64,000 nucleotides of DNA from Nitrospirota bacterium (GTDB lineage Bacteria > Nitrospirota > Nitrospiria > Nitrospirales > Nitrospiraceae): contig CAVPBK010000015.1 of the NCBI GenBank assembly GCA_963701855.1, positions 13,885-77,884 of the forward strand. Reading direction: 5' to 3'. Positions 6,598 through 43,337 of the stretch are shown here, piece after piece (the first letter of the stretch is position 1; every line of letters begins with the position of its first letter). A program made the translations under genes and the position numbers. The notes below the pieces were generated by a model. The model did no database searches. It was not told where the DNA came from and worked only from the letters and a program-made list of their open reading frames with translations.

Positions 6598-7935
6598 ATG
6601 AACATGCGCAAAAGAATCGTTCGCAGCTCTAACCTTCTCACCATCACATGGGTTGTGTGCCTGCTCTTCGTGCTCGGCGGATGCTCTATTCTGCCGGGTC
6701 ACTGGCGGCCAGGATGGAATCAGCCGTGGCCCGCCGACAAACCGGTGCCCGACACAGCCGGCTCATGGAAGTTGACCGAACTCGAATCGAATGACGGCCG
6801 CTTTGTCGCCCTGGCCATATCGGGTGGCGGGAGTCGAGCCGCCAACTTCGGAGCCGCCGTCATGTTGGAGCTCCGACAGAGGGGTTTGCTGGAACAAGTG
6901 GATGTGATTTCTGGCGTGTCTGGTGGAACGCTTCCGGCCGTGTACTACGGACTCGGAGACAAGGCCGGTGCATTTACCGAACCGGCGGTTCGCGAGGCCT
7001 TGGGCTACGATTTTCAGAGCAGTTGGATTCGCCGGTGGTTTCTACCGCAGAACATCTTCCGCTATTGGCTGTCCGACTTCACCCGTTCAGATATTATGGT
7101 GCAAGTCTTCAACAACAACCTGTACCACGACGCCACCTTTGCAGACCTCCAGCCGCATCCCAAGATCTTGATCAATTCGACCGTCCATAACGATCACACC
7201 CGGTTCACGTTTACGGATGACCGCTTCGCCACGCTCCATTCTGTGCTCGCCCCCTATCACGTCGCCAATGCCGTGAATGCGTCATCCGCATTTCCCGGCG
7301 CATTCCAGGACGTGACCCTGCAGTGGTATATGGAGCCGACGCAGTTCCTGCATCTCTATGACGGCGGTCCCATCGATAATCTAGGCGTACAGGCGATCAC
7401 CCAATACATGAATCTGAACATTTTAGGCACGTCGCTCGATCGGCTGTTTCCCAAGGGGTGTGTCATTTTTGTCATCGACGCCACGCCATCGAGTGATCAT
7501 GCTGACCTCAACACGCGTGAGTCCGATCGTACATTCGTCGACTATTTCGTCGACACCAATGCGCTCGATGCCACGGATGCCATGTTGATCGAATCCCGCC
7601 GCTCCCTACTCGAGAGAATGGGCATTCCGGTCGAGAAGCAGGATCGGGAGCCGAGGGGCCGGCTCCCGGTGAACGATCTCCGGCAATGCGGCTGCGAAGT
7701 CCGCCATATCTCGCTTCGGCATCTGCTCTATGCCGAAGTATCCGAAGCGAATGAGGAATTGGCCGAACGTGTGACGCGAATTAAGACGAAGTTTTGGCTT
7801 GCCGACGGAGAACAGAACGATCTCTTCCAAGCCGCCAAGGTCATCATGCAGCTGCTCGACGACACACATCTATTATCGGACTCCTCGTTTAAAGTTCCTT
7901 GTGCCGGCGGACCAACACAGAAACCACCAGCCTGA
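6598..7935 (+). CDS. Patatin-like phospholipase, lipoprotein
   Basis: SGGGSRAA oxyanion motif, GVSGG nucleophile motif, DGG; lipobox LGGC. Confidence 0.85.
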   Translation: MNMRKRIVRSSNLLTITWVVCLLFVLGGCSILPGHWRPGWNQPWPADKPVPDTAGSWKLTELESNDGRFVALAISGGGSRAANFGAAVMLELRQRGLLEQVDVISGVSGGTLPAVYYGLGDKAGAFTEPAVREALGYDFQSSWIRRWFLPQNIFRYWLSDFTRSDIMVQVFNNNLYHDATFADLQPHPKILINSTVHNDHTRFTFTDDRFATLHSVLAPYHVANAVNASSAFPGAFQDVTLQWYMEPTQFLHLYDGGPIDNLGVQAITQYMNLNILGTSLDRLFPKGCVIFVIDATPSSDHADLNTRESDRTFVDYFVDTNALDATDAMLIESRRSLLERMGIPVEKQDREPRGRLPVNDLRQCGCEVRHISLRHLLYAEVSEANEELAERVTRIKTKFWLADGEQNDLFQAAKVIMQLLDDTHLLSDSSFKVPCAGGPTQKPPA

Positions 7936-7939
7936 GGGG

Positions 7940-8282
7940 AGGGGATGGAGCCTGATGATCTTCTGTGCTCGCGCAACGCGCACGATCAGAATGTGCTCGT
8001 CCGACGCGCGCAATCGAGGATCAACCAGGCCACCCTTTGAAGAGGGTAACGAGCAAGCTTGGAAGGAGCATCATACGTTGGACGCGCGCAGTAGAAGCTC
8101 AATCAGCCCCCATCCCTAAGAGAGAACGAGCGAGCTTGGAGGGACCATAATATTGATCGTCCGATGCGCGCAGTGAAGGACAGCCTGGCCACTCCCTAGA
8201 GAGAGGTTATACAAAGATTGGTCGGAAAAATGTATTGAACGCGCGCAGTGGAGACCAGCTGGGCCGCTATTTTGAGAGAGAG
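7940..8282 (+). repeat. Hairpin repeat family cluster: one left arm plus four right-arm/tail units at ~80-bp spacing
   Basis: GGGATGGAGCCTGATGATCTTCTGTGCTCGCGCAACG followed by recurring (G/A)A(C/T)GCGCGCA(G/A)T cores and ACGAGC(A/G)AGCTTGGA tails. Confidence 0.85.
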
Positions 8283-8348
8283 ACGGGTATCACAGTTTTT
8301 CTCCCTCGTCCTATGGAAGCCAGCGTACCATCATCTGAAAGGTTCCTC

Positions 8349-9053
8349 ATGTTGCCTCCGTCTGATTGCCAGCGCGCATGGAGTTCCACTGCTGCATGGA
8401 AAGTCATGGCGATCTTCTTGCTCGGAGGACTCCTGATCGTCCTGCACGCGTCTCCTGCGCCGGCGGGGCCCGAATTCGCGCCGTCGTCAATCAAGAAAGG
8501 TGTGCTCTTAGTAGCCAGCCCGTTGCTGGAAGATCCAAATTTCCACCAAACCGTCGTGCTCATCTTAGAGCATGGGCCTCAGGGAACATTCGGGGTCATT
8601 CTGAATCGCTCCACGAAAGTCCTTCTGTCCGAAGCGCTGCCGAAGCTCACGGTGCTCGAGGGGACCAGGCATCGTGTGTTTTCGGGTGGGCCGGTTGAAC
8701 AAGGCCGCCTTCTCCTGCTGTTCCGACTCAAGGAGCCTCCAGGAGATGCACGGTCGGTCTTCGATGGGATCTACGTGGGGGGGACACCGAGCACCCTGGA
8801 GCGCATCATTACACAGGCCAAACCTACCGAAACCTTCAGAGCCTTTGCAGGATCTGCCGGATGGGCTCCCAAGCAGCTGGAAGCTGAGATGCTTGTCGGC
8901 GCGTGGGGGGTCTTGCCACCGGATCCGATCGGTATGTTTGACAAAGATCCGGCCGTACTCTGGCAGGATTGTATCAGCCGGCTGCAGGGGCCGAGGGTGG
9001 TGGGGGTAACCTGGTTAGTCCCCAGTGCTCATGGAACCCCCACGATAAAATGA
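8349..9053 (+). CDS. YqgE/AlgH family protein; C-terminus runs into a repeat arm
   Basis: LLVASPLLEDPNFHQTVVLI, GVILNR, GGPVE, GSAGWAPKQLEAE motifs; start uncertain. Confidence 0.85.
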   Translation: MLPPSDCQRAWSSTAAWKVMAIFLLGGLLIVLHASPAPAGPEFAPSSIKKGVLLVASPLLEDPNFHQTVVLILEHGPQGTFGVILNRSTKVLLSEALPKLTVLEGTRHRVFSGGPVEQGRLLLLFRLKEPPGDARSVFDGIYVGGTPSTLERIITQAKPTETFRAFAGSAGWAPKQLEAEMLVGAWGVLPPDPIGMFDKDPAVLWQDCISRLQGPRVVGVTWLVPSAHGTPTIK

Positions 9054-9402
9054 CTGGGAGGACACCCACGTTAGTCCTGTGCTCCCGGAACAGAGGAGGG
9101 GATGGAGCCTGATGATCTTCTGTGCTCGCGCAACGCGCGGTCGAGGACTCCCCTCGTTGGACGCGCGCAGTGGAAGATCAATCAGGCCCCATCCCTGAGA
9201 GAGGACGAGCGAGCTTGGAGGGATCATCTGTAGCCTCGTTCGACGGCCGCACATAGATCAAGATGGGTGCCCTCCCAGGGAAGGAATTGCAAGCAAGCTT
9301 GGAAGGGTTAATTAGATGAATGGTGGTCGTTCGACGTGCGCAGTTGGGGACCGATCCAGGCCACCCCTTAATAGAAAATGAAACCGAGCAGGCTCGGAAG
9401 AG
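9002..9402 (+). repeat. Triple-nested hairpin repeat (La-Lb-Lc-Rc-tail-Rb-tail-Ra-tail)
   Basis: La 9002-9037 pairs with Ra 9329-9367; Lb 9054-9096 with Rb 9234-9278; Lc 9099-9135 with Rc 9155-9195. Confidence 0.85.
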
Positions 9403-9598
9403 AAGAAAATGGCAGTCTGGTCGTCCTCCTGGGTCCGACCGCTTCCCTTTCGTCCGGACGGTTGAGTATCAGGGGGTTGTTGATTATCTAACTCCCCTTA
9501 AATACCGGAATTGTTTTTGAAGATGTCGACACGATTGCTAGCAATAAGTAGCCTGGCCCCGCTTCACTCCAATCATGGAACTTGAGGCGCCGAATGTT

Positions 9599-10033
9599 TT
9601 ATTCGGCCATGCTGACGCCCGAGCCACCCATTTCCTTCGGGATGTCTCTCATCTTTGGCAACCCGTCCTTCATTCGCAACTTCGTCTCTTCATAGTTGAC
9701 ATGGATGCCGGCGTGGTACGGAAAGTCCGGAATGACTGCCGCATAGACGTCGGTGAGTCCCCAGCTGGGATGCTCGGTGAAGATGTGGCCCCCACAAGTC
9801 TTACACCACTTGCGATAACTGAGAGGCGTCTTGTTGTACGTGCCGATGTTGTCTGCTCCCTGCGTGAGCTGTACCGCTTCGGGTTTCCATAAGGTGAAGG
9901 CGTTGACTGGTGCCGCCGACCAGCTTCGACAGGATTCACAATGGCAATACCCCATTGCGGCTGGCTCACCGCTGACTGTGAACTGAACTGCGCCGCAAAA
10001 GCAGCTGCCTCTGTACACTTTTCCGTTACTCAT
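9599..10033 (-). CDS. GFA (glutathione-dependent formaldehyde-activating/CENP-V) family protein
   Basis: GSCFCGAV, CHCESCR, WCKTCG zinc motifs. Confidence 0.9.
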   Translation of the reverse strand: MSNGKVYRGSCFCGAVQFTVSGEPAAMGYCHCESCRSWSAAPVNAFTLWKPEAVQLTQGADNIGTYNKTPLSYRKWCKTCGGHIFTEHPSWGLTDVYAAVIPDFPYHAGIHVNYEETKLRMKDGLPKMRDIPKEMGGSGVSMAE

Positions 10034-10199
10034 GATGCACCTCCTTGGTGGCGTGCACTCATATTAACGTATCTTGGGATGCTTTCGCTCCATAAGGTAG
10101 GGCTTGTACCTTTCCGGGAAATCAGCACCGGACCATTCGAACCCATCGAGACTCAATGAATCTTTCCGATTCACGAACCCGATGGGGCGCACACCAAGG

Positions 10200-10423
10200 G
10201 AGGAGGGGATGGAGCCTGATGATCTCCTGTGCTCGCGCAACGCGCGGTCGAGGACTCCCCTCGTTGGATGCGCGCAGTGGAAGATCAATCAGCCCCCATC
10301 CCTGAGAGAGAACGAGCGAGCTTGGAGAAGGGAAGGGGAGCGGCCAGGTGCCCTTTTTGCTCGCAGAACGCGCACGATAGGAATGTGCTCGTTCGATGCG
10401 CGCAGTCAAGGGAAACCTGACCG
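10200..10423 (+). repeat. Two consecutive hairpin repeat units
   Basis: 10205-10326 is almost identical to 9097-9220; followed by a GGGGAGCGGCCAGGTGCCCT-type unit. Confidence 0.85.
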
Positions 10424-10526
10424 TGTAAATGCAACCATTTCAGAAAGCCGTTCGTTTGATTTCATGCCTTGAACAGGGTATTTCTATGCGGCGAGAGAGG
10501 AGTTTTCCCGAGAATAGGAGCGAGTC

Positions 10527-11036
10527 ATGAGTGCGGTATTTCCGAGCGAGCGAATAGAGCAAACCATTCTCTTGCTTCGCGGCCACAAGATCATCCTTGA
10601 TAGAGACCTGGCTGCAATGTATGGCGTCTCAACCAGGGACCTCAATAAGGCGGTATCGAGGAATCTGGACAGATTCCCCGATGATTTTATGCTGCAGTTG
10701 ACACGTTCAGAGTTCAACGACTTGAAGTTCCAATTTGGAACATCAAGTTGGGGAGGGACCAGGAAGCTACCAAGGGCCTTTACGGAACAAGGGATTGCCA
10801 TGCTCTCCAGCGTTCTCCGAAGCAAACGGGCCATCCATGTGAATATCGCGATTATGAGAGCCTTTGTGAAGCTGCGAGAGTTTGCAGCAAGCCATAAGAC
10901 CTTGGCGGCGAAGTTGGAGCAACTTGAGCGGAAAGTGGGAGGGCATGATGGACAGATTCGGTCGCTATTCGATGCCATCCGTCAGCTCATGGAGCCGCCG
11001 ACTCCGAAATCCCGCCGCATCGGATTCAAGGCCTGA
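10527..11036 (+). CDS. ORF6N domain DNA-binding protein
   Basis: LRGHKIILDRDLAAMYGVSTRDLNKAVSRNLDRFPDDFMLQLT, AFTEQGIAMLSSVL, C-terminal RRIGF. Confidence 0.9.
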   Translation: MSAVFPSERIEQTILLLRGHKIILDRDLAAMYGVSTRDLNKAVSRNLDRFPDDFMLQLTRSEFNDLKFQFGTSSWGGTRKLPRAFTEQGIAMLSSVLRSKRAIHVNIAIMRAFVKLREFAASHKTLAAKLEQLERKVGGHDGQIRSLFDAIRQLMEPPTPKSRRIGFKA

Positions 11037-11102
11037 GCAGACACTTCTGTCCTCAGCGGCTCTTTGCCGTGCCCCCTCAACCATAACCCCAGCCTCGATC
11101 TT

Positions 11103-11515
11103 CGTTATGGACGCGCGCAGTGGAAGATCAATCGGGCCACATCACTGAGAGAGAACGAGAGAGCTTGGAAGGAGTAGGGAGGGCAGACTAGATGGTCTCC
11201 TGTGCTCGCGCAATGCGCGGTCGTTCCACAGGTTAAGGTTTAGGCTGAGGTTGAGCAGTGACCAATCATGCCTCGGTGTCTTTTTCCCCCTCAACTTCAA
11301 CCTAAGCCTTGGCCTGCCAATGAGACGCGCGCAGTGGGAGACCAATCTAGCCCGCCCTCAAGAGAGAAGATGGAAGAGCGGTGGTCGCTCAATGTGCGCA
11401 GTAGGGGATAGATCCAGACCACCCTTCGGGGGGAAGTACGAGCAAGTTTGGACGGGGCATTGTAGTAGGAGTTGGTCCGACGTGCGCAAATGAGAATAGA
11501 CCAGACCGACCCTGA
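11103..11515 (+). repeat. Hairpin repeat family cluster with an inserted hexamer-repeat hairpin (11229-11316)
   Basis: GAGGGCAGACTAGATGGTCTCC pairs with GGGAGACCAATCTAGCCCGCCCTC; loop holds CAGGTTAAGGTTTAGGCTGAGGTTGAG...CTCAACTTCAACCTAAGCCTTGGCCTG. Confidence 0.8.
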
Positions 11516-11607
11516 AAAAGTACAATGTCCCCGTTTCTTCATTCCTCGAAGCCTGGCCCCATTTTTCTCGACAGGCTGAGGTGTCGGCCTGGTAGGATGC
11601 GTCGGCC

Positions 11608-12888
11608 ATGAACGACCGACCTACTGTCTCCACCCCTCGCTCTGCCGCGGTGCTGTTTATCCTCATCACAGTCATGCTCGACATGCTGTCCTTCGGCATC
11701 ATCATTCCCGTGCTGCCGAAACTCGTCGAGGAGTTTCTCTCCGGCGATACGGCCCAGGCGGCCATGATCTACGGACTGATGGGTACGACCTGGGCGGTCA
11801 TGCAGTTCTTTTGCTCGCCGATTCAGGGAGCCCTGTCCGACCGGTTCGGCCGCCGGCCGATCGTGCTGCTGTCCAATCTGGGATTGGGACTCGACTATAT
11901 CGTCATGGCGCTGGCGCCGACCGTCGCCTGGCTGTTCCTGGGTCGTGCCATCTCCGGCCTCGCCTCATCCAGCTTCAGCACCGCCGGTGCGTACATTGCC
12001 GACGTGACGCCTCCGGAACACCGGGCGGCGGCGTTCGGCAAGATCGGCATGGCGTTCGGCATCGGCTTCATACTCGGTCCTGCACTGGGCGGCTGGCTCG
12101 GCGAGATCGATCCGCGACTCCCGTTTTGGGGCGCGGCGGCGCTCAGCCTGGCGAACGCCTGCTATGGGTTCTTCGTGTTGCCCGAATCCCTGACGCATGA
12201 CAAGCGGATGGCCTTCTCGTGGAAGCGGGCGAATCCGGTCGGCTCGCTGGTGCTGTTGCGCTCGCACCATGAACTCTTCGGGCTCGCGGCCGTCGCCTTC
12301 TTCGGCTATCTGGCCCATACGGTGTTGCCGAACGTGTCGGTGCTGTATATGGGTTACCGGTACGGATGGGGGACCGCCACAGTCGGTCTGACGCTCGCCG
12401 GCGTCGGCGTGGCCGTGATGATCGTCCAGGGGGGGCTGATCCGTCCGGTCACGGCCCGATTAGGCTTGCGCACGACATTGCTGGTGGGGTTGCTCTGCGG
12501 AGCGATCGGGTTTTCGGTCTACGGCGTGGCGCCCGAGGGATGGATCTTTTGGCTGGGCATTCCCGTCATGGCCTTTTGGGGCCTCGCGGGTCCGGCGGCG
12601 CAGGCACTGATGAGTCGCCGCGTGAGCAGTTCCGAGCAGGGCCAACTCCAGGGAGCCATTGCAAGCATCAACGGCTTAACCGGTCTGATCGGGCCGATCC
12701 TCTTCACGCAAAGCTTTGCGTATTTCATCGGACCGAGCGCCGCCTGGCACCTGCCGGGCGCGCCTTTCTTATTAGCCTCGCTCATGATGCTCAGCGCCGC
12801 AGCCATTGCCTGGTGGGCGACGCATCCCGGTCGATCAGCCATCCCGAACGTTGAATCAGTCGGCACAAGTAGGAGGGATGGAGCCTGA
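11608..12888 (+). CDS. TCR/Tet family MFS transporter (TetA-like)
   Basis: LDMLSFGIIIPVLP, GALSDRFGRRP motif A, GFILGPALGG motif C; about 12 TM segments; stop lies inside a repeat arm. Confidence 0.9.
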   Translation: MNDRPTVSTPRSAAVLFILITVMLDMLSFGIIIPVLPKLVEEFLSGDTAQAAMIYGLMGTTWAVMQFFCSPIQGALSDRFGRRPIVLLSNLGLGLDYIVMALAPTVAWLFLGRAISGLASSSFSTAGAYIADVTPPEHRAAAFGKIGMAFGIGFILGPALGGWLGEIDPRLPFWGAAALSLANACYGFFVLPESLTHDKRMAFSWKRANPVGSLVLLRSHHELFGLAAVAFFGYLAHTVLPNVSVLYMGYRYGWGTATVGLTLAGVGVAVMIVQGGLIRPVTARLGLRTTLLVGLLCGAIGFSVYGVAPEGWIFWLGIPVMAFWGLAGPAAQALMSRRVSSSEQGQLQGAIASINGLTGLIGPILFTQSFAYFIGPSAAWHLPGAPFLLASLMMLSAAAIAWWATHPGRSAIPNVESVGTSRRDGA

Positions 12889-13335
12889 TGATCTTCTTTG
12901 CTCGCGCAACGCGCGGTCTCAGAAGGATGGGGAGGGTAGCCTGGTCGTCCTCCTGCTCGTGGAACGCGCACGATCAGAATGTGCTCGTTCGACGCGCGCA
13001 ATCGAGGATCGACCAGGCCACCCTTGAAAATGAAATGGGGAAGTGGGAAGACGCGCGCAGTGGAAGATCAATCAGCCCCCATCCCTTGAGAAATAACGAG
13101 CGAGTGTGGAGGATCATTTATAGCCTCGTTCGACGGCCGCACTTTGGGAGACCGAAACGGTGTCAGGAACAGTTTCCCGGTCCGTGTATTCCGGGGACGG
13201 CCTTCATTAGAACGAGGAAACTGTTCCTGACACCGTTCATTCTCCCCAGGTGCCCTTCTTGCTCACAGAACGCGCACGGTGAAACAGTGCTCGTCCGATG
13301 CGCGCAATAGCGGGCAGTCTCGTCCACTCCCCTTT
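12872..13335 (+). repeat. Doubly nested hairpin repeat cluster plus a further unit
   Basis: L1 (GGATGGAGCCTGATGATC) - L2 (GAGGGTAGCCTGGTCGTCCTC) - R2 (GAGGATCGACCAGGCCACCCT) - R1 (GATCAATCAGCCCCCATCCC). Confidence 0.85.
13156..13237. repeat. REP-like perfect 22-bp inverted repeat
   Basis: AACGGTGTCAGGAACAGTTTCC (13156-13177) and GGAAACTGTTCCTGACACCGTT (13216-13237); another arm at 15585-15601. Confidence 0.85.
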
Positions 13336-13565
13336 GTAGATGTTTGGAGTAGGAGAGGGATTTAGCTCGAACGTGGTGGTGGATCGCGTCTCAGCGGGAA
13401 GGAGTGTTCCCAATATTTAAAATGTTTCCACTTCCTCTCGTATCGAATAGACAGTTTTCACCCACAGTGCTAGCATTGCACCCGCCTGCTCGCCAGCGGC
13501 TCTAGATCTACCGAGTGAGAACTCTGCAAGTTCCTTAAGGCTCAAAGCTGTTTTGAAATAACCGT

Positions 13566-42756: not shown

Positions 42757-43116
42757 ATGGGTCCAACTAAGGCGATCGTGAAAGAGAATGGGCTCTATGA
42801 AGTGGTAGGAGGAAGGCTGATTAAGGACGGTTTTGTCGGCCGACAGGAACTTGAAGACTACGTGAAACACCATTATGTAATATTGCCAGTGCTCGACAAC
42901 GCGGGAAATCCCTGGCTGCTCGATGAAAAGCCGGTGTATTGTCTCCGTGGCACGCAATACGAAACCGTAGATGATCAGAGGGTACACCTCGCGCGTTGTC
43001 CGGATTGCGGTGGCATGGGAATCAGATCAGACGAATTTACGGTCGAATCGGATTGCATTCGCTGTACGGCCTGCGGGCATGAATTCGATGCGCGATTGGA
43101 AATGATGGAAACATAA
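42757..43116 (+). CDS. Hypothetical protein with a C-terminal zinc finger
   Basis: CPDCGG...CTACG; SD GGAGGT. Confidence 0.75.
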   Translation: MGPTKAIVKENGLYEVVGGRLIKDGFVGRQELEDYVKHHYVILPVLDNAGNPWLLDEKPVYCLRGTQYETVDDQRVHLARCPDCGGMGIRSDEFTVESDCIRCTACGHEFDARLEMMET

Positions 43117-43117
43117 A

Positions 43118-43191
43118 GAGGGGGCGGCCTTGTTGGTTTCCCGTGCTCACGGAACTCCCACGATGAAGCTGTGGTCGTTCGACGCGCGCAG
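43118..43191 (+). repeat. Hairpin repeat family member, right arm truncated
   Basis: GTGCTCACGGAACTCCCACGATGAAGCTGTGGTCGTTCGACGCGCGCAG right after a stop codon. Confidence 0.75.
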
Positions 43192-43337
43192 GTACATGTG
43201 TGTTGCTCTCGATAACATTATCTTTCCGAAAGCTTCATTCTTCGCCCGAGCCTGCAAGGGGAATTTGGAATATGCCTATGTATATCCGGGGGAATTTGGA
43301 TGTACATCGTGATGTATACTGTATTGCCACATCTGTA

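Follow-up and report, generated by a model that had tools for sequence, protein, structure and literature searches.

IS200/IS605 elements have a hairpin near each end, and integron attC sites carry RYYYAAC / GTTRRRY boxes. The small dispersed repeats of Nostoc/Anabaena, reportedly a subject of Elhai and co-workers in 2008, are said to be very small (21-27 nt), mobile and nested in one another, and to be without the long stem, core and tail of the Nitrospira unit treated here. We know of no enzyme for these repeats.

REPINs are REP doublets that form hairpins and occur with RAYT transposases in Pseudomonas, and a single-strand hairpin intermediate has been proposed for them (PMC3116915). The same paper describes their clusters as tandem and makes no use of the word 'nested' (PMC3116915). 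Bacterial MITEs have conserved ends matching a full-length insertion sequence and target duplications at their flanks (PMC10969869; PMC3184786). The palindromic repeats of Volvox carteri organelles are about 50 nt long and AT-rich, have loops of 3-5 nt and are found in both orientations (PMC2670323).

The window analysed here is a stretch of 64,000 nt from a genome of the Nitrospiraceae. Positions 9001-9402 of the window hold a three-deep nest of one repeat family, in which one copy lies inside the loop of the next. The parts of this locus are as follows.

9001..9023, + strand: unit a, 5' arm of the outer stem, TGGGGGTAACCTGGTTAGTCCCC; orthologous arm in L052-L054, L057 and L058
9024..9037, + strand: unit a, left core, AGTGCTCATGGAAC; one of three direct core copies
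9038..9053, + strand: unit a, 5' piece of the split apical hairpin, CCCCACGATAAA; GATAAA at 9044-9049, then ATGA, the start of the insert
9054..9077, + strand: unit b, 5' arm of the outer stem, from the repeat search and the arm pairing energies
9078..9091, + strand: unit b, left core, TGTGCTCCCGGAAC; motif match with 0 mismatches
9092..9098, + strand: purine leader AGAGGAG of unit c, directly adjoining the left core of host b; the apical 5' half of b is absent
9099..9195, + strand: unit c, a complete simple unit; covariance model match at 9093-9197, 98.6 bits, E 9.9e-29
9099..9154, + strand: within unit c, stem arm (9099-9120), left core (9121-9134) and apical hairpin (9135-9154)
9155..9195, + strand: within unit c, right core (9155-9170) and stem arm (9171-9195)
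9196..9233, + strand: unit c tail, ..ACGAGCGAGCTTGGAGGGATCATCTGTAG
9234..9278, + strand: unit b, 3-nt apical remnant CCT, right core (9237-9252) and 3' stem arm (9253-9278)
9279..9320, + strand: unit b tail, ..GCAAGCAAGCTTGGAAGGGTTAATTAGATGAA, ending in GATGAA (9315-9320)
9321..9369, + strand: unit a, 3' apical remnant TGGTGGT, right core (9328-9343) and 3' stem arm (9344-9369)
9370..9402, + strand: unit a tail, ..CCGAGCAGGCTCGGAAGAG

The 5' arm of unit a overlaps the last codons of the open frame at 8235-9053.

The original prediction, made from the letters of the window, placed three left arms (La, Lb, Lc) before three right arms in the reverse order (Rc, Rb, Ra), and it agrees with the sequence in both order and position. 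A repeat search recovered the arms of b (9054-9068 / 9264-9278) and of c (9099-9113 / 9181-9195), each over 15 nt at 93%, and found each conserved core in three direct copies (9023/9077/9120 and 9152/9234/9325). The arms of a, whose pairing has two A.C mismatches, are absent from the output of that search. Each left arm was said to pair with its own partner, and each does prefer its own right arm in RNA as well as DNA energies. For arm a, the RNA value is -28.4 kcal/mol with its own partner, against -19.0 and -22.2 with the others, and the DNA value is -15.6 against -7.9 and -9.7. The corresponding values are -26.7 against -16.2 and -10.6 (RNA) and -16.0 against -8.6 and -5.7 (DNA) for arm b, and -32.6 against -20.9 and -21.4 (RNA) and -21.3 against -12.6 and -10.3 (DNA) for arm c. 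Folding of the region as RNA and as DNA recovers the three nested stems, with z of -4.69 for RNA of the + strand, -5.61 for RNA of the - strand and -4.29 for DNA; the + strand RNA fold and the DNA fold are each equalled by 0 of 100 shuffles.

A tail stands behind every right arm, as had been noticed (CGAGCGAGCTTGGA, CAAGCAAGCTTGGA and CGAGCAGGCTCGGA), and GAT(A/G)AA is found on both sides of the insert in unit a, as GATAAA (9044-9049) and GATGAA (9315-9320). The similar nest pointed out at 12872-13110 is real, and so is the related uninterrupted loop at 43152-43180, which lies within an uninterrupted unit at about 43114-43214. Matches to the right-core motif number 16 in the window, all on the + strand, against 0.94 expected, and those to the left-core motif 12 against 1.97.

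The unit is about 100 nt long. A purine-rich leader precedes a variable outer stem of about 22 bp, and inside this lie a conserved asymmetric core, interrupted by a GA bulge and a 2x2 internal loop, and an apical hairpin of 20 nt; the tail measures about 25-40 nt and ends in TTGGA(A/G)GG. The arms of the outer stem are the most variable part and differ in sequence between subfamilies. The spacing from left to right core, by motif matches with at most 2 mismatches, is exactly 20 nt in 74 of the 77 units with adjacent cores. Among the 40 tail matches with a right core at most 80 nt upstream, 34 lie 36-38 nt after the right arm. B-type cores read GAAC/GTTC. The hairpin of REP-type elements is made of a pair of short inverted palindromes bearing a conserved tag, GTAG or CGTC; in the Nitrospira unit GTRR often stands behind the right core (..GCGCAGTAG / GTGG / GTAA), the left half is without a tag, and the halves are not clear palindromes. 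Thirty-seven diverse units align free of gaps; the proposed structure pairs 82.6% of the cells of this alignment, against 64.1% in shuffles and 35-43% when slid, and both-side changes occur in 227 cells, where shuffles give 90. Pairing reaches 97.3% in the core helix, which has pair switches at 36-72, 38-70, 39-67 and 41-65. Judged from the aligned units, the structure is evidently maintained by compensating changes.

Like REPINs, the Nitrospira unit is about 100 nt long, forms a long hairpin with conserved parts and compensating changes, is extragenic and clustered, occurs in tens to hundreds of copies and persists for long within a lineage (PMC3116915). Unlike them, it conserves the inner core and varies the outer stem, and its leader, GA bulge and tail make it asymmetric (PMC3116915). 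It departs from a REP/REPIN-RAYT system in that the RAYT-like gene of the genome is flanked by another repeat and, by a search with one protein, does not occur together with the unit across genomes. Several features appear to be shared with IS200/IS605 transposition, including an irregular folded hairpin as the likely recognition element, entry in one orientation behind a short specific sequence (GAAGG/GATRAA), and a similar short sequence at the element's own right end. A lagging-strand-template bias may be shared as well, seen here in 72/104 clusters and confounded with gene direction. The bias of IS608 and ISDra2 is stronger than this. Unlike IS200/IS605 elements, the Nitrospira element has one hairpin, the IS200 copies of the genome have unrelated hairpins, and no TnpB was found there. 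A small element derived from IS200/IS605 with the hairpins of the resident TnpA type was discarded, the resident IS200 hairpins being unrelated to the unit.

The unit resembles bacterial MITEs in being small, non-coding, multicopy, foldable, intergenic and sometimes one inside another, and differs from them in the variable ends of its stem and in that no full-length partner was found (PMC10969869; PMC3184786). It was not assigned to the MITEs, as its stem arms are the most variable part, the ends of IS200 and IS110 are unrelated to it, and no transposase recurs near the clusters. From the repeats of Volvox carteri it differs in the bacterial host, the longer unit, the bulged core, the tail, the fixed junctions and the same-strand rule (PMC2670323). 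Assignment to integron attC sites failed on the position of the AAC/GTT pair, at the top of the core inside the 22-bp outer stem, and on the scatter of the units over all contigs.

A covariance-model scan of the genome and its relatives confirmed a multicopy family. This genome has at least 143 units (E<=0.01, among 150 candidates scored), which are intergenic and lie in about 120 clusters scattered over all contigs. All 24 relatives in the genus carry units (24 to at least 96 matches each), and matches were found in 55 of 60 other genomes of the Nitrospiraceae, covering 36 of 39 genera; copy number across the genomes of the family runs from 0 to over 60, with 0-2 units in nine genera and with 34, 18 and 10 matches in the single-contig genomes G079, G109 and G067. 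Genomes of two sister families gave no matches (0/6 and 0/5). By this distribution, the repeat family is abundant, old and spread across nearly the whole bacterial family. Members of the unit-c subfamily are 96-98% identical in other species of the genus, where the neighbouring gene is at most 84% identical; the genomes nearest to this one are only about 80-84% identical. The conservation of this subfamily appears to exceed the neutral expectation.

Identity of the unit with a described Rfam family had been named as a point against the prediction. The whole window gave 0 Rfam matches at the gathering score, and the interval 7900-13400, searched at E up to 5, gave three matches at chance level only (19-21 bits, where the gathering scores are 40-93). 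Viral contigs gave no match to a degenerate core pattern of 46 nt. No description of these Nitrospira repeats was found in the literature searched. One table gives a repeat count for Nitrospira moscoviensis with no description of the repeats (PMC12306157), and another source mentions Nitrospirales in a figure legend only (PMC6006769). The repeat family is judged new, but of a known general kind.

Conserved structure of this sort may belong to an RNA that serves the host within transcripts, perhaps by stabilising 3' ends, as a processing site or as a platform for proteins to bind, and that selection has spread and kept; nesting would then be tolerated, since an insert in the apical loop disturbs neither the functional stem nor the core. 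Such a function fits the compensating changes, the conservation of the core over the whole bacterial family and the retention of individual units at the same site in several species. The inserts, of four different kinds, are all in the apical loop, the place where an RNA tolerates them best, and covariance-model scores are much higher on the + strand than on the - strand (for example 81.9 vs 18.9 bits). Most units also lie behind a same-direction gene, in 64 vs 25 intergenic single units and 83 vs 39 clusters, but this orientation is explained equally well by the direction of replication. The unit strand is the G-rich strand (lagging-strand template) in 72/104 clusters, a bias expected for single-strand transposition; it is modest and agrees to 69% with replication and to 68% with the upstream gene, the two being inseparable, with 18 clusters following replication only and 17 the gene only. 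Mismatches in the outer stem count 107 G.T (G.U in RNA) and 105 A.C, whereas selection on one RNA strand should favour G.U. At the window locus no T-run follows the stems, so the units do not look like intrinsic terminators, and there is no match to an Rfam family even at E up to 5. The range of copy number, together with the turnover of occupants at one site, fits selfish spread better, and a host RNA function is doubtful.

This turnover is visible at the site orthologous to the window nest, where a search for empty, single and nested alleles found simple, two-level and unit-free forms. In L053, unit a is a simple hairpin whose apical hairpin of 20 nt, ccccacgataaagcggtggt, is intact, and the same loop is split by b(c) in the window. 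The simple unit that L052, L054 and L057 have at this site differs in its apical hairpin, L055 and L058 have a two-level nest, and L070 and L072 have no unit. First arrivals, behind a gene without an earlier unit, are seen in L063 and L067. No clean presence/absence insertion was found among near-identical genomes. Two metagenome contigs (L122 and L123), with flanks 99.1% and 97.9% identical, have a 168-nt vs 23-nt difference inside a cluster, which by its sequence is a recent change and a replacement rather than a clean insertion. The proposal of a short non-autonomous element entering loops thus stands for the multicopy unit and for the ortholog with a simple hairpin, while movement is what the comparison of sites suggests.

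Nested clusters make up about a quarter of the multi-core clusters of the genome. Nesting depths of 1, 2 and 3 are found in 98, 30 and 2 clusters, respectively, and the locus at 9001-9402 would make the third case of depth 3. Nested and tandem copies are always on the same strand, and only 1 of 242 clusters is of mixed strand. New copies are found in the apical loop of older copies or directly behind their tail, whose end also serves as a landing place and gives tandem copies. With ^ marking the junction, insertions read ..CAGAAGG^(A/G)T-unit-tail..TTGGAAGG^CCCT.. in GGCC-type loops and ..GATRAA^unit-tail..TTAGATGAA^.. in CACGAT-type loops. Left cores without a following right core number 41, and about 19 of them (hand count) read GCGCGG..GAAGG + (A/G)T + next unit; matching right junctions read ..GAAGG^CCCT-CGTTGG. 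A clean example is C3:+121336 (GAGAAGG^AT..unit..AATCAGAAGG^CCCT). A word of 5-7 nt (GAAGG or GATRAA) stands on both sides of inserts, with paired core copies that are not always identical (AGAAGG vs GGAAGG, in one case TTGGGG). The right word is nearly always TTGGAAGG whatever the left word, so it looks borne by the element and not like a target duplication.

Parts of the original prediction need amendment here. The tail, taken to be an appendage of the right arm, is real, but its TTGGA(A/G)GG is a second copy of the loop insertion sequence CAGAAGG. Loop insertion holds for unit a, which is split after GATAAA by b(c), but the b/c junction is not simple, and the apical 5' part of host b is entirely gone (GAAC^AGAGGAG ... 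GTAG^CCT-CGTT). Junctions of the b/c type recur in 5 hosts of different subfamilies, and their origin calls for a further deletion or for another route. Also lodged in these loops are at least three elements unrelated to the family.

The nests may have formed by microhomology-guided template switching, with no dedicated enzyme. Hairpins would stall replication or repair, a strand ending in ..GAAGG would slip to another GAAGG ahead of a different unit, copy this unit and its tail as far as the next GAAGG and slip back, and short core exchanges would also occur; nesting and tandem arrays would simply follow from the presence of many short direct repeats within strong palindromes. The segment copied always extends between two successive GAAGG-like cores and the donors are already in that context, the b/c-type junction falls exactly at the conserved core ends in its 5 hosts, as core exchange would give, and no enzyme has been found. 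Frequent deletion between repeats would account for the many half-units (LLR 16, LRR 14) and for junctions at words in common, for instance TTAGATG / TTCGATG, L122 and L123 differ by replacement, and the near-equal G.T and A.C counts of the outer stem are as in the unselected decay of a DNA palindrome. The microhomologies, however, are only 5-7 nt long, homology arms of 14-16 nt are short for frequent exchange, and the first arrivals in L063 and L067 need a start that slippage between units cannot give. Template switching also leaves to be explained the strict same-strand rule, a subfamily near-identical across species with genes about 80% identical, and the family-wide conservation of an asymmetric bulged core, all three of which point to recognition by a protein. 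As an account of the nests, template switching is possible, if rather unlikely.

In another reading, the units would be folded sites of an integron-like or Xer-like tyrosine recombinase, with contents swapped between ..AAC and GTT... The insert replaces exactly the AAC-to-CGTT interval in 5 hosts, the core (..GCGCAAC / GTTGGAC..) resembles attC boxes, and the variable sequence, kept structure and extra-helical bases would suit such a site; the genome also has 22 tyrosine recombinase matches (PF00589 search). In the unit, however, AAC/GTT adjoins the apical hairpin under a 22-bp outer stem, whereas attC has it at the base, and the B-type cores have GAAC/GTTC instead. The approximately 120 clusters form no cassette array beside an integrase, most insertions are at GAAGG in the loop and not at AAC/GTT, and no recombinase gene was found linked to units. 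Recombination sites of this kind are very improbable.

No mobilising enzyme had been recognised in the window, and none was found in searches of the genome either. Four Y1 transposase genes are present, three of them IS200 copies and one RAYT-like (229 aa, C11). No covariance model match lies within about 1.5 kb of the RAYT-like gene, and the sequence flanking it encodes ..NGVRNSF.., as another repeat, AACGGTGTCAGGAACAGTTTCC, does when translated. In a search with one protein query at E<=1e-10, the RAYT-like protein was not found in G001, G060, G067, G071, G088 and G091, which have 10-64 units, and was found in G090 and G113, both with 0 units. The suggested co-occurrence was thus not borne out, and the RAYT-like gene was dismissed as mobiliser for its own different repeat and its wrong distribution among genomes. 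IS200 was dismissed for its end hairpins, CCCCGTAGCTTGCTACGGGG and CCCCGCAGCTTGCTGCGGGG, which are unrelated to the unit.

A test for a link to IS110 had also been proposed. The genome has 11 IS110 and 4 reverse transcriptase matches, and no units or cores were found at the ends of the loci examined. A search for TnpB found none in the genome. The Y2 transposase search gave no match in the genome, but 0/14 control genomes matched either, so this null does not show that the family is absent. No recombinase or transposase recurs among genes near clusters. In 445 open frames at most 2 kb from clusters, only histidine kinases, AcrB, ABC transporters, Sel1 and similar recur; these are large housekeeping families and give no candidate for a linked enzyme. 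Where clusters of opposite orientation flank a gene, that gene is unnamed or of a housekeeping kind, for instance a UvrD-type helicase, FtsK or arginase.

The repeat family behaves like small selfish DNA landing in its own kind. The reading preferred here, at a probability of roughly 55%, is that the units are non-autonomous DNA hairpin elements piled up by entering a short core sequence that their relatives bear in loop and tail. The segment from one short core (GAAGG or GATRAA) to the next would be cut out or copied and joined in at another copy of this core, and the family would target itself because every element has the core in its own loop and tail. The likeliest chemistry would be nicking and strand transfer on folded single-stranded DNA by a protein reading the conserved bulged core, akin to IS200/IS605 or REP-type HUH enzymes or to rolling-circle initiators with nicking activity on hairpin loops. 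Junctions such as b/c may have been blurred afterwards by small deletions between short repeats, of which there are many.

A more speculative extension, which we consider improbable, is an ancient, family-wide mobile class of bare hairpins that bear their own landing site and are moved by an unlinked, probably single-copy and host-resident enzyme, which would read the bulged helix and nick the hairpin loop, with the landing word (GAAGG/GATRAA) set by the subfamily. If true, this would be a DNA insertion system of a new kind, guided by hairpins, perhaps re-targetable, and distinct from the RAYT, IS200/IS605 and IS110 families.

In soils, waters and treatment plants, Nitrospira are the main nitrite oxidisers and complete nitrifiers. 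Their genomes are mostly derived from metagenomes, in which a clustered repeat of tens to over 100 copies breaks assemblies and creates false open frames. In the window, false open frames arise from repeats at 10104-10472 and 12888-13310. A covariance model of the unit would improve annotation. The nested layers are a built-in relative clock of insertion events that could serve in strain typing. In biological terms, the unit is an element, selfish or domesticated, that has persisted; its structure is clear, its landing word is fixed and no mobiliser is known for it. Identifying the protein by which it is read could bring to light a new DNA-joining activity directed by hairpins.

The three nested units lie on the + strand of window 9001-9402, where three left halves come first and then three right halves, each of the latter with a tail. 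This order, noted originally for 9002..9402, is borne out by sequence reading and by a repeat search, which recovered the stems of the middle and innermost units b and c (15 nt, 93% each) and three direct copies each of the conserved blocks CTGTGCTC..GGAAC and CCTCGTT.GACG..GCA. Each left arm was held to pair only with its own right arm, and arm-versus-arm duplex energies do favour the own partner in 3/3 arms, with RNA as with DNA parameters. The region folds into three nested stems (z -4.69 for the RNA + strand, -5.61 for the RNA - strand and -4.29 for DNA; 0/100 shuffles as good in each case). In the window 16 right-core matches, every one on the + strand, compare with 0.94 expected, and 12 left-core matches with 1.97. 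A second nest at 12872-13110 is present as described, and the related uninterrupted loop placed at 43152-43180 belongs to a simple unit. A covariance model built from a 37-unit alignment gives nine strong + strand matches in the window, where the family is found at:

777-940, + strand, cluster
7936-8200, + strand, cluster: unit-c subfamily left arm, then four right halves (pattern LRRRR)
9001-9402, + strand, nested units a (outermost), b and c
10200-10430, + strand, cluster
12872-13334, + strand, cluster
near 43114-43214, simple, uninterrupted unit

The clusters come after the stop codons of patatin-like, AlgH-like, ORF6N and MFS genes, all on the + strand. Some open reading frames are extended or created by the repeats. 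The AlgH-like frame (8235-9053) runs 50 nt into unit a, its stop being the TGA of the insert junction, and frames of 122 and 140 aa (10104-10472, 12888-13310), lying entirely within clusters, are probably not genes.

Genome-wide (4.30 Mb in 15 contigs, C1-C15, with the window at C15:13885-77884), the unit consists of the following parts:

Leader: purine-rich (positions -31 to -14 before the left core have 74-93% purine, except -15 with 59%)
5' stem arm: about 22 nt, varying between subfamilies
Left core: TGTGCTCGCGCAAC
Apical hairpin: 20 nt, of a few types (GCGCGGCCTCAGAAGGCCCT, GCGCACGATAAGAATGTGCT, CCCCACGATGAAGCGGTGGT)
Right core: CGTTGGACGCGCGCAG
3' stem arm: after the right core
Tail: ..ACGAGCGAGCTTGGAGGGA.., in most subfamilies

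Adjacent left and right cores (motif with at most 2 mismatches) are spaced by exactly 20 nt in 74/77 units. Rows for a gap-free alignment were hand-chosen for diversity: 74 units gave 67 past a stem-pairing filter and 44 at <80% arm identity, and 34 of the 44 plus 3 window units make up the 37. In the proposed structure the outer stem is followed by two 3-bp helices separated by a 2x2 internal loop, then by a 3'-side GA bulge and 4 bp CAAC/GTTG. Its cells pair in 82.6%, versus 64.1% when shuffled and 35-43% with the partner slid, a control that somewhat flatters the structure because this was partly derived from the same sequences. Pairing in the core helix reaches 97.3%, with switches at 36-72 (GC 27, CG 9, AU 1), 38-70 (GC 29, AU 6, GU 2), 39-67 (GC 19, CG 15) and 41-65 (AU 33, GC 4).

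Nesting is the rule in this family, not an accident. Core matches form 242 clusters, of which one has mixed strands, and the bracket depth of multi-core clusters is 1 in 98, 2 in 30 and 3 in two. The locus at 9001-9402 came out as LLRRR, since unit a's weak left core scored under the cut-off; it is therefore a third case of depth 3.

Junctions were grouped by hand count over 41 left cores without a following right core. About 19 of them read GCGCGG(C/T)C..GAAGG and lead via (A/G)T into the next unit's purine leader and stem. Five read ..GAAC|AGAGGAG plus the unit-c subfamily, like the entry of c into b, and one reads GCGCACGATGAAA| plus the unit-b subfamily, in agreement with the entry of b into a (CCCCACGATAAA|ATGA..). 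Unrelated inserts follow others (the GGCACGTCTCGGCGTGCC element, n=5; the AGGTTGAGGCTCAGG long hairpin, n=3; the CCAGATAGAC hairpin, n=2), and the residue look like chance hits. Right junctions agree with the left group by group: ..(A/T)T(C/T)(A/G)GAAGG|CCCT-CGTTGG in the GAAGG group, ..GGAGGGA.CAT.TATAT|CGTTCGA in the b/c-type group, where the host retains 0-6 nt of its apical 3' half (GTGCT, GGTGGT, CCT), and ..TTAGATGAA|TGGTGGT in the a/b-type group. A clean example is C3:+121336, GAGAAGG|AT..unit..AATCAGAAGG|CCCT.

The tail motif has 75 matches in the genome (at most 2 mismatches). For 40 of them a scored right core lies within 80 nt upstream, in 34 cases at a distance of 36-38 nt. The remaining 35 include some chance hits, and in most a weaker but recognisable right arm precedes the tail. 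Another right core follows within 60 nt in 28 (nested), and a left core in 7, at 26-29 nt in 6 of these (tandem). Every tail thus ends in the word GAAGG, which one apical type also has in its loop, and new units stand directly behind either copy. The original claim of insertion into the loops of earlier copies fits the fixed junctions and an empty form at an orthologous site; it falls short in that units also sit behind tails. The main rival is template switching without an enzyme, together with exchange between the numerous short repeats. It accounts at least equally well for the b/c-type core-to-core junctions and for the frequent half-units (LLR 16, LRR 14), and is considered rather unlikely overall.

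Other elements are found in and around the units. The AGGTTGAGGCTCAGG long hairpin (..AGGTTAAGGTTTAGGCTGAGGTTGAGCA.. paired with ..CCTCAACCTCGACCT..) lies at window about 11201-11361 inside the apical loop of GGCC-loop-type units; the genome has 3 cases (including C9 and C11), and metagenome contigs L120, L122 and L123 have it also. An element of about 55 nt, CC.GGGCTAATGGCACGTCTCGGCGTGCCAGTGGGTGGGCGGGTGAGAAAG, stands behind CCCTCG between apical hairpin and right core in 5 units (on C6, C9 and C2, e.g., C6:+654588), and in the right flanks of many. In place of the apical hairpin, the units at C3:+120732 and C3:-102092, and one unit of a relative (L062), have a hairpin of about 110 nt with CCAGATAGAC-type words. 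One subfamily, whose stem is GGGGTAGCTGGGACGATCCC, is invariably flanked in the genome by ..GATGCTGAAAAA and ..TTCGCTGCGGCCTTGCTTGGG.. (e.g., C14:87403-87507, C4:280897-281001, C10:22533-22635), and is therefore embedded in another repeated element, which stands alone at the orthologous site of relatives L070 and L072.

The AlgH-like gene is present in 22/40 other genomes of the genus, at up to 84% identity. The DNA behind it was readable for 17 loci; 4/22 had no match to the 161-nt probe and one was the window's own. Unit a at locus L053 shares the window's stem and has an unbroken apical hairpin, ccccacgataaagcggtggt, the empty state of the loop that is split in the window. The unit-a stem encloses a different apical hairpin (gcgcgccctgagaagggcct) in L052, L054 and L057; L055 and L058 carry the unit-c subfamily with AGAGGAG leader and tail between the host's cores, L056 and L064 three left cores in succession, and L063, L067 and L069 a single truncated unit. 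No unit occurs at L070 and L072, and since the purine leader is missing at these two empty, but distant, loci, it may arrive with the element. The empty, single and nested alleles that were to be looked for at orthologous loci are represented by the vacant sites, the simple units and the two-level nests. Metagenome contigs L122 and L123 match at 99.1% over 1397 nt and 97.9% over 243 nt, with 168 nt versus 23 nt between these stretches inside a cluster, on comparison a recent structural change by replacement, not clean insertion.

The genome has at least 143 covariance-model matches at E<=0.01, a lower bound because only 150 candidates were scored. All 24 genus relatives have matches (24 to at least 96 each), as do 55/60 other genomes of the bacterial family in 36/39 genera (1 to at least 64 each; 53/58 genomes without G062 and G107, flagged unpublished). 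Two sister families gave none (0/6 and 0/5 genomes) and a third 1-3 weak matches in 3/5. Beyond the genus, recognisable likeness is confined to the core (about positions 19-78, ~85%), and stems differ; the unit-c subfamily is 96-98% identical across species whose genes are ~80% identical.

On a crude genome-wide open-frame map 37/126 simple units lie inside called frames, several of which are created by the repeats themselves. A co-directional gene is on the 5' side of 64 of the remaining 89 and not of 25, and of 83 clusters versus 39. Clusters on the G-rich strand number 72 versus 32 on the other, inseparable from the gene-direction effect. A host RNA function of the unit is improbable. RNA selection on one strand is expected to tolerate G.U and purge A.C. 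Across 115 units, outer stems hold 107 G.U pairs and 105 single A.C mismatches (36 other single mismatches together), the equality that transition decay of a DNA palindrome yields, which speaks against the outer stem being under selection as RNA at present; the core may have an RNA role.

No mobilising enzyme had been recognised in the window, and a genome-wide search likewise gave no linked transposase. Four Y1 transposase genes are present, with no unit within 1.5 kb of any. Three belong to copies, 98.7-99.3% identical, of an IS200-type element 550 bp long, which has a single 149-aa transposase and the hairpins CCCCGTAGCTTGCTACGGGG and CCCCGCAGCTTGCTGCGGGG at its ends:

C5:11607-11969, IS200-type copy
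C12:66015-66377, IS200-type copy
C1:189485-189847, IS200-type copy

IS200 was rejected as mobiliser, its end hairpins being unrelated to the unit. The fourth gene, the genome's only RAYT-like one (229 aa; L038, on C11), is flanked by another repeat, AACGGTGTCAGGAACAGTTTCC (L038 around 900-1900; from ..NGVRNSF.. frames), which also forms an inverted, REPIN-like pair at window 13153-13238 inside cluster 12872-13334. Together they resemble a classical REPIN-RAYT pair, distinct from the hairpin family. The suggested co-occurrence with HUH/RAYT genes did not hold, the RAYT-like protein being present in 33/60 family genomes regardless of unit number, and this gene was likewise rejected. Nor did a link to IS110: the loci retrieved for it (11 matches) and for reverse transcriptases (4 matches) have no units and no cores at element ends. 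Searches of the genome found no TnpB and no Y2 transposase, control genomes being equally silent for Y2, and viral contigs had no match to the unit core. Recurring open frames near clusters belong to large ordinary families only, and genes between oppositely oriented clusters are ordinary.

The best fit, at a probability of about 0.55, is that the units are non-autonomous DNA elements, each joined in at a short core word carried in the loop and tail of its relatives. It rests on fixed words at the junctions, the rule that copies share one strand, an empty orthologous site, changing occupants at a single site, the cross-species near-identity of one subfamily, and the conserved, asymmetric, bulged core. 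An attC-like recombination site is very improbable. For the non-autonomous element, a core-reading protein would nick folded single strands and transfer a strand, by likeness to IS200/IS605, REP-type enzymes and rolling-circle initiators.

Elhai and co-workers reportedly described very small nested repeats in Nostoc in 2008. Among bacteria, REPINs come closest in behaviour; compensating changes and tandem clusters are reported for them, and the word 'nested' is not used (PMC3116915). In Volvox organelles, hairpin repeats are 'inserted into one another', the mechanism being open (PMC2670323). A full-text literature search found no description of the Nitrospira repeats, and the units are filed as a new family of interspersed hairpin elements in bacteria, unusual in the lack of a linked transposase, in self-targeting through the loop and tail word, in reciprocal nesting of subfamilies and in spread across the bacterial family.
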